Shown here piece after piece: positions 22,580-23,500 of a DNA stretch of 52,327 bases. Source of the DNA: Girardia tigrina (lineage: Eukaryota); contig MQRK01219748.1 in the NCBI GenBank assembly GCA_001938485.1, forward strand, positions 1 through 52,327, read 5' to 3'. The number at the start of each line of letters is the position of its first letter. The first letter of the stretch is position 1. The notes beneath the pieces are model-generated. The model saw nothing but the letters and a program-made list of their open reading frames with translations. It did no database searches and had not been told where the DNA came from. The position numbers and the translations under genes were made by a program.

Positions 22580-23500
22580 TTCAATATAATAAACTGTTAT
22601 ATCATTAATTTCTTTTTCCAGACATCCATAATCGTATAAATAATTTTCATCTTGTAATTTTCCGAAAGAAATAAAAGTAATGTTCCTTCAATTTTAAACA
22701 TTTCTTTAACTTTTTGTCTTAAAGTTTTTGCTTTAATTGTCCACACTTCAGCAGTATTAATTGTATCTTTTCCTGGAACTTCAATTGCTAAAAATAATCT
22801 TTGAATATCTTTATTTTTCTGTCTACTATATTGTCAAAATTTTATTAAAATTTCTTGTATTTCTTTTTTAAACATCGTTTCTTGTTTTGATTTGTATATT
22901 AATACCGATTTAAGATTATTTATTACACTATCATTAATATTTAACGTTTCTATTTCTTTAATTATATTCTTTAACTTTTCTTCATTAACTTAATTTTTTA
23001 ATCGTAATGCCAAATTTTTAATATAATTTTCAGATATATTCATTTTATTGCCATTATTTTCTAACATTATAATATCAACAATATTAATGTTATTTGGTAA
23101 TATGCCATAATCTACTAAATAGTCTTCTAATTCTAATTCAAAACATATGAAATTCATAATAAATTTATCATTTCCAATCTTTTGTACAAGCATTTCCTTC
23201 AAATGTTTAACTTTTTGAAAATGATCCATTTGAATTACTGTAAATTCTTATCCATTAATAGTTATAAAAATCTGAAGATTATCTGTCATAGGCATTTTCC
23301 TCAATTGTTCTCCTAAAAATTTCAAAAATGTTTTCATTTCACAATTCGTCGTCATATTATCATCTAAATAATTTACTAACAACTTTATAAAATTTTCAGT
23401 TTTATCATTTTGTAAATTTAATTCAATAATTTCTTTAATATTTTTACGTATTTTACCATTTAAATCTTTATTCATTTCCATTTCGTTTATTAATCTACTC
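22580..23500 (-). pseudogene. Two tandem (helical + ubiquitin-like) modules between Gag and Env
   Basis: UBL1 (~23280-23070): LQIFITING*EFTVIQMDHFQKVKHLKEMLVQKIGNDKFIMNFICFELELEDYLVDYGI. UBL2 (~22805-22590): QRLFLAIEVPGKDTI..KTLRQKVKEMFKIEGTLLLF/FGKLQDENYLYDYG. Both resemble ubiquitin MQIFVK..VKAKI..LIFAGKQLED..LSDYNI. Confidence 0.7.

Follow-up and report, generated by a model that had tools for sequence, protein, structure and literature searches.

Tandem four-helix and ubiquitin-like modules between Gag and an in-frame gB-type Env in a Ty3/gypsy family of the planarian Girardia tigrina

A high-copy, Env-bearing family of Ty3/gypsy elements in the genome of Girardia tigrina encodes, between the zinc knuckles of Gag and the envelope protein, two tandem copies of a module that consists of a predicted four-helix bundle and a ubiquitin-like (UBL) beta-grasp domain. 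The parts follow each other in one reading frame in the order Gag, four-helix bundle and UBL (twice), acidic/basic linker, signal-like segment, gB-type Env, protease (PR), RT, RNase H, and integrase. The family belongs to the gB-type GAG-ENV-POL class, in which a class III fusogen lies between gag and pol. The window analyzed here, the whole 52,327-nucleotide stretch of contig MQRK01219748.1, belongs to an AT-rich genome (1.43 Gb, 255,254 contigs) and contains a decayed copy of this element on the minus strand, with the following features in the order of the element:

23840..24456, minus strand: end of the Gag capsid and three CCHC zinc knuckles (zf-CCHC, E 7e-4), the knuckles at 24081-24049, about 24000-23980, and 23881-23840
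23503..23839, minus strand: low-complexity spacer 3' of the knuckles, (AT)n run at about 23501-23529
23290..23502, minus strand: helical domain 1, four predicted helices (pLDDT 54-89 by block)
23059..23277, minus strand: UBL1, predicted ubiquitin-like beta-grasp without Gly-Gly (AlphaFold2 model and VIA)
22816..23037, minus strand: helical domain 2, four predicted helices (model pLDDT 80, and VIA)
22577..22800, minus strand: UBL2, predicted ubiquitin-like beta-grasp without Gly-Gly (AlphaFold2 model and VIA)
22334..22576, minus strand: linker, acidic and then basic
22280..22333, minus strand: hydrophobic signal-like segment adjoining Env (Kyte-Doolittle window 2.17)
20500..22279, minus strand: gB-type class III fusion glycoprotein, Env (PF24664, E 2e-21 and 3e-40)
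19500..20499, minus strand: Env tail and aspartic protease (LVDTGS at 19981-19964)

Reading frame and surroundings of the element

The window copy lacks the 5' part of gag and stops shortly past the protease. Its modules are broken by a stop at 23250 in UBL1, stops at 22992 and 22836 in helical domain 2, and a frame change near 22660 in UBL2, and its Env, which begins with AYDC and has C-terminal hydrophobic segments, is broken too. A Pfam scan of this broken copy matched no family in the module region; folds and searches were run on natural unbroken frames from other copies, 128 of which, 80-100% identical, were found in the genome (126 scored of 2720 candidates). One of these copies has a stop-free frame of 654 aa that runs from behind the knuckles into Env, and another a stop-free frame of 539 aa that reaches from the third knuckle as far as the hydrophobic segment, which is the highest Kyte-Doolittle window of the 654-aa frame and probably acts as a signal ahead of Env. 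Elsewhere in the family, Retrotrans_gag is matched at E 6e-6, the linker carries a net charge of -8 over 42 aa and then +9 over 37 aa, and PR, RT, RNase H, and integrase come next, in the Ty3/gypsy order. The distance from capsid to protease is about 4.9 kb.

Among loci picked by similarity to the module region, the knuckles are in frame with UBL1 in 10 of 15 copies, UBL2 is in frame with Env likewise in 10 of 15, and the UBL1-UBL2 distance is 477 nt in all 21 copies compared. Between the hydrophobic segment of Env and the protease, 14 of the 30 copies compared are free of indels, and nine of those, the reference copy included, are also stop-free. A programmed frameshift between Env and Pol was rejected because the indels are scattered. 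Contigs from public runs (four of four, two of them on record as RNA) cover all 30 bins, which attests to the presence of the element, not to its transcription; a single joint in one contig was not accepted as evidence of splicing.

An earlier note on this DNA, made from the letters alone, had proposed tandem UBL domains inside a retroelement polyprotein. The peptides that it quoted are present and all lie on the minus strand; one frame does run through Gag, the modules, Env, and the protease, and other copies carry both modules without stops, in agreement with the conservation that it had asked about. It had placed the modules on Gag; they follow the Gag knuckles but lie just before an in-frame Env and are not simply part of Gag. 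The in-frame Env, the separate fold match of the helical part, and the published UBL of a related element (see below) had escaped that note.

The window also contains other remnants. A 5' fragment of the same family lies at 33124-35155 (minus strand), with the start of gag (94% identity) and a candidate LTR, about 800 bp long, that is not firmly delimited, and an RT fragment upstream of gag at 26220-26500 (minus strand) probably belongs to another element. A second decayed gB-Env element, with Env, tail, protease, and RT, occupies 6100-10100 (plus strand); no module or Gag was seen upstream of it. The remaining features are a Brix-domain ORF at 2719-3396 (plus strand), two kinase fragments at 29818-30279 and 49050-49463 (minus strand), and, at 50143-51849, a MULE fragment flanked by long inverted repeats.

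Fold, duplication, and surface of the modules

The AlphaFold2 model (15 sequences; mean pLDDT 80.9, pTM 0.51) places beta-grasps at residues 76-146 and 235-308, each preceded by four helices. Among the best 500 Foldseek matches, 324 had E values of 0.001 or less, with polyubiquitin and ISG15 in the lead. VIA-align matched each UBL with Z scores of 9-11 and rmsd of 1.5-2.4 over 73-77 residues, for example UBL1 with the midnolin UBL (Z 11.1, rmsd 2.3, 76 aligned) and UBL2 with the Dsk2 UBL (Z 9.7, rmsd 1.5, 73 aligned). At the sequence level, a profile of UBL2 matched the UHRF1 UBL at E 0.004; the Pfam ubiquitin family (PF00240) stays below the cut-off in the window-element family (E 0.005-0.013, two of five copies; E 0.005 for UBL1) and is above it in three of the four sister-family frames scanned (E 1e-7 to 2e-6), one sister family also matching PF11976 with its UBL2 at E 1.5e-5. 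The ESM Atlas returned ubiquitin-family clusters at 0.81-0.82, which is taken as a lead only. The predicted beta-grasp topology and the structural matches bear out the ubiquitin fold proposed in the earlier note for both domains.

These UBLs are not conjugatable or deubiquitinase-cleaved ubiquitin. None of the 13 aligned UBLs has Gly-Gly past the last strand, as the earlier note had supposed when it took them for integral domains, and their identity to host ubiquitin is 11-22%. The position of Ile44 is occupied across the 13 UBLs by Ile, Phe, Met, Leu, or Glu, and in UBL1 of the window copy and of 10 of 11 family copies by Asn. Gly47 is kept in two of the 13, Val70 in neither register of the last strand, and Leu8 perhaps in UBL1 of the window-element family alone. 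No host gene could be identified as the donor, the ubiquitin search of the genome being filled by true ubiquitin.

The duplication of a module of about 150 aa, also proposed earlier, holds up in two kinds of comparison. Aligned as single sequences, modules 1 and 2 score 78, against 37.3 +/- 6.7 for shuffled sequences, none of 2000 shuffles scoring as high; compared as profiles, the whole modules match with probability 98 and E 7e-15. The UBL halves carry a clear signal by themselves (z 6.9 in the shuffle test). The helical halves are not significantly similar as single sequences (z 1.6; 169 of 2000 shuffles reach the score); as profiles they match with probability 83, E 8.5e-6, and a score of 33, compared with at most 14.6 in 60 column shuffles.

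[quoted passage not shown] Helical domain 2, folded alone with pLDDT 80, had as its top VIA match, in a search that covered 48,161 chains, the yeast LW/TND domain 7faw (Z 11.6, rmsd 1.5, 78 of 84 residues aligned), two units above the next row (Z 9.6). Named TND, LW, and IBD domains make up 8 of the top 50 rows and HEAT and ARM repeats fill the rest, and Z scores under about 13 in helical bundles can reflect common HEAT-like packing. Helical domain 1 matches the MED26 TND (Z 8.8, rmsd 2.3, 72 aligned). Foldseek lists the Elongin A TND (TM 0.69) and several LEDGF IBD entries for the bundle, none of its matches reaching E 0.001 or less. The TND fold is described, in the part of PMC9987994 available, as a right-handed five-helix bundle, but the helical half is modeled with four helices, and the identity is 6-14%. 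No sequence signal was found with shallow profiles, which scored 9-10 against seven host TND stretches, with shuffles at 8-9, and PF11467 was matched by 1 of 10 members at E 0.11. The ESM Atlas returned nothing for the helical domain. A BAG-like reading (4hwi, rmsd 14.8) was rejected because the isolated bundle gives no BAG row. The host genome itself encodes several MED26-like TND paralogues, named by resemblance (L107, L111-L117, and L120), one of them with a RING-like finger.

Related families and known elements

A HMMER search of 1.84 billion proteins returned five hits, four of which carry the module at 25-32% identity; the fifth, an LRR protein, was dropped as spurious. With one of the outside proteins as the query, five further double-module families were found in the G. 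tigrina genome, and the duplication is common to at least six element families (A-F). Families G and H have at least one module each. The fourth outside protein resembles a Gag spacer; the other three have no known context because, for two of the outside module proteins, scanning metagenomes for the surrounding DNA found nothing. Word-based protein searches gave no hit among longer proteins and one hit in all, already known, and a phage search gave no match to the module.

In a tree of 15 rows, two of which are on long branches and of unsure placement, the six module-1 rows form one clade (support 95/93); therefore, the duplication is older than the splits between the families. In families B, C, and D, dN/dS is 0.16-0.39 over the four domains, 0.20-0.23 in the upstream spacer, and, in one pair, 0.07 at the start of Env, all with dS near saturation in this AT-rich DNA; one family pair shares 32-40% identity in the modules and 83% in Env. 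These values indicate that the modules are maintained, albeit no more than the adjacent spacer, and that they diverge faster than Env. The modules are under purifying selection, and their duplication is old.

The same slot is occupied in other gB-Env elements of this genome. A profile search found a UBL about 1 kb upstream of Env in 14 of the 30 top Env loci, several of the others having no upstream DNA. Such families (loci L123-L150, e.g., L127:2121-3740, L138:3325-4890, and L143:22-1620) show the order type-2 module, acidic linker, AT-hook-like motif, Bcl-2-like domain, hydrophobic segment, and Env. The Bcl-2-like domain precedes the hydrophobic segment in families G, H, and I, where PF00452 is matched below the cut-off (E 0.04-0.09) and Bcl-xL by profile at E 0.026, outranked by two unrelated proteins. 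The AT-hook-like motif follows the module in families G and H (E 0.08). The module of family G has 1445 candidates in the genome; the UBL-like stretch of family I was seen by eye only and was not found by the profile. A word-based protein search with the Bcl-2-bearing spacer returned nothing. Among the 56 double-module loci, the Bcl-2-like profile is absent from 55 and gives one weak hit. In family F, a weakly Bcl-2-like insert of about 170 aa separates UBL2 from Env in L047 (2198-2698) and L048 and is missing from L046; this family may keep a diverged Bcl-2-like domain after its two modules (E 0.014, 93 columns, probability 3).

The closest known counterparts are the giant gypsy elements of planarians, Burro/GYPSM1 (Arkhipova and Yushenova 2019, PMC6431247). 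As described in the available part of that review, the Burro ORF1 (4,873-5,140 aa) comprises Gag, knuckles, MATH, BIR, ankyrin, a Ubi2/SUMO-like motif (PF11976), Bcl-2, an in-frame Env, and protease, and HHpred detected a dUTPase-like domain between PR and RT. A UBL in the Gag-Env slot of a planarian gypsy element is, therefore, already in print. The window-element family shares with Burro a CCHC-knuckle Gag, a UBL in the Gag-Env spacer, and an in-frame mononegavirus-like Env between gag and pol, and its sister families share, weakly, the Bcl-2-like domain. Unlike Burro, for which that part of the review speaks of a single UBL motif and of no helical partner, it has its UBL twice in tandem, each time next to a four-helix partner, lacks Bcl-2, and has no room for BIR, MATH, or ankyrin. 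BIR was matched in 7 of 27 candidates in the genome, and PF00692 (dUTPase) in neither of the two frames scanned by Pfam. The window element can be regarded as a compact relative of Burro, a kinship that rests on architecture; what is new here is that the UBL comes in tandem form, that Bcl-2 has been lost, and that there is a helical partner with a predicted TND-like fold. The literature consulted contained no account of a tandem helix-UBL module, and the accessible portion of PMC8532177 treats only the silencing of Burro.

In gene order and Env class, the family also resembles the GAG-ENV-POL errantiviruses with HSV/gB-type Env that were reported from Platyhelminthes, Nematoda, and Bryozoa, six of them in Schmidtea mediterranea (Chary and Hayashi, PMC13524379). 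In the material available from that study, the domains of the spacer are not described, and "ubiquitin" has no occurrence in the main text and seven supplements.

Two viral systems invite comparison. The insertions of cytopathic pestiviruses are near-authentic ubiquitin that is cleaved after Gly-Gly. They resemble the modules as ubiquitin folds within a viral polyprotein, and BVDV entries rank high in a viral fold search with the modules, but they differ from these divergent UBLs without Gly-Gly. The Ubl1 of coronavirus nsp3, which is followed by an acidic region, is likewise a non-conjugatable UBL that forms an integral part of a viral polyprotein anchored in a membrane; the likeness is one of analogy only, and nsp3 Ubl1 has no helical partner domain.

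A closer parallel to the pestivirus insertions than the twin modules was found in BEL/Pao-type elements of the same genome, in which near-authentic host ubiquitin is fused ahead of Gag (loci L184, L186-L189, L191-L196, L198, and L199, e.g., G000:C251248:9891-10103 and C49435:8322-8537). The ubiquitin search of the genome gave 3445 candidates; of 18 stretches fetched, 14 showed ubiquitin, one being plain polyubiquitin and 13 continuing into element sequence. Gly-Gly is kept in 11 of these 13 fusions, which look cleavable by deubiquitinases. One stop-free frame of 616 aa combines HSP90 (E 3e-26), ubiquitin (E 3e-31), a DUF1759 Gag (E 9e-11), and CCCH fingers, and another frame PRMT_C, ubiquitin, and DUF1759. 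Real ubiquitin has thus been captured in this genome by BEL/Pao elements in a second event, which is independent and recent. No description of a BEL/Pao ubiquitin-Gag fusion was found in the literature consulted, and these fusions may merit more attention than the twin modules.

Possible roles of the modules

We tentatively favor, mainly by analogy, the view that the modules serve as a core adaptor in particle assembly or processing, which would tether the capsid/RNA complex to the Env-bearing membrane in place of a matrix domain. Since Env follows via an internal hydrophobic segment, the part of the polyprotein that comprises Gag and the modules would stay cytosolic, anchored to that membrane until cleavage by proteases, a topology predicted from hydrophobicity. 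The modules would then act as non-conjugatable binding domains through surfaces other than the Ile44 patch of ubiquitin, and the tethering would parallel the binding of the nucleocapsid by nsp3 Ubl1 that is reported in an abstract. This adaptor role is preferred because the module persists where Bcl-2 has disappeared and because a matrix domain was not seen. What the slot retains is the module, in two copies in families A-F and in at least one in G and H. However, the spacer is equally constrained, and the faster divergence of the modules fits a host-facing role, or an exchange of Env, as well.

A host-facing role, with the modules as an accessory protein of the Burro-type cargo that manipulates cell-death or ubiquitin signaling beside the Bcl-2-like domain or in its place, appears less probable, if still worth serious consideration. 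The Burro slot carries MATH, BIR, ankyrin, UBL, and Bcl-2, so that the UBL of Burro sits among apoptosis and ubiquitin-signaling domains (PMC6431247, available part), which counts against the adaptor role. The Bcl-2-like domain of families G, H, and I, perhaps in diverged form in F, and the fast evolution of the modules relative to Env also speak for host manipulation. However, elements that have lost Bcl-2 retain the module, the matches to Bcl-2 fall below the cut-off, with two unrelated proteins above Bcl-xL, and the structure searches gave no known signaling protein with the architecture of the module.

The other readings are all unlikely. Single-ORF elements need some control over the ratio of their products, the single frame yielding them at 1:1:1, and the UBLs might be built-in degradation or extraction signals, whose reading by proteasome receptors or p97 would remove the membrane-anchored spacer or adjust the Gag:Env:Pol ratios. 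The close fold matches do include the UBLs of midnolin, Dsk2, Rad23, and FAT10; however, these are tied with many other UBLs and concern the fold only, and proteasome receptors read the Ile44 face of ubiquitin, which is not kept, making this an improbable function. Slightly more doubtful is the idea that the helical halves are captured TFIIS N-terminal domains and that the cleaved modules enter the nucleus and bind the TIM motifs of elongation factors or the integrase, thereby steering integration or transcription. It would account for the TND, LW, and IBD entries that VIA and Foldseek return for the bundle and for the MED26 match of helical domain 1, and the AT-hook-like motif of families G and H and the use of the LEDGF TND by lentiviral integrases (PMC9987994, available part) are in line with it; the four helices instead of five, the low identity, the shuffle-like scores against host TNDs, the Foldseek E values, and the possibility of HEAT-like packing all speak against it. 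Its strongest form, in which the helical halves are true domains of the TND/LEDGF-IBD type and a tandem TND-UBL tether of the element's own making is released from Gag-Env-Pol and binds elongation-factor TIMs or integrase, is more improbable still; if true, such a tether would serve a retrotransposon in the way that LEDGF of the host serves HIV.

Least probable of all is the proposal of the earlier note that the UBLs mimic ubiquitin and recruit ESCRT for budding. Late domains often sit after the nucleocapsid, as the modules do, and none of 10 Gag-spacer stretches, which do not cover all of Gag, contains a PT/SAP, PPxY, or YPxL motif. Fused ubiquitin can indeed replace late domains, but this requires Leu8 and Ile44 (PMC2958808, available part), whereas the patch of the modules varies, with Asn or Glu at the Ile44 site, in domains of low identity to host ubiquitin. 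Mimicry of this kind is unlikely, given that the UBLs lack a diglycine and have not kept the Leu8/Ile44/Val70 patch.

Elements with Env in frame between Gag and Pol have to link capsid, membrane, and enzymes that all derive from one chain, and the module is the one part of the spacer that is retained across the sampled families. In the compact families it stands apart from the other cargo of Burro and so offers a small, foldable target for binding studies. The UBL that had been noted once, in Burro, is shown here to be an old, duplicated, and selected domain with a helical partner.
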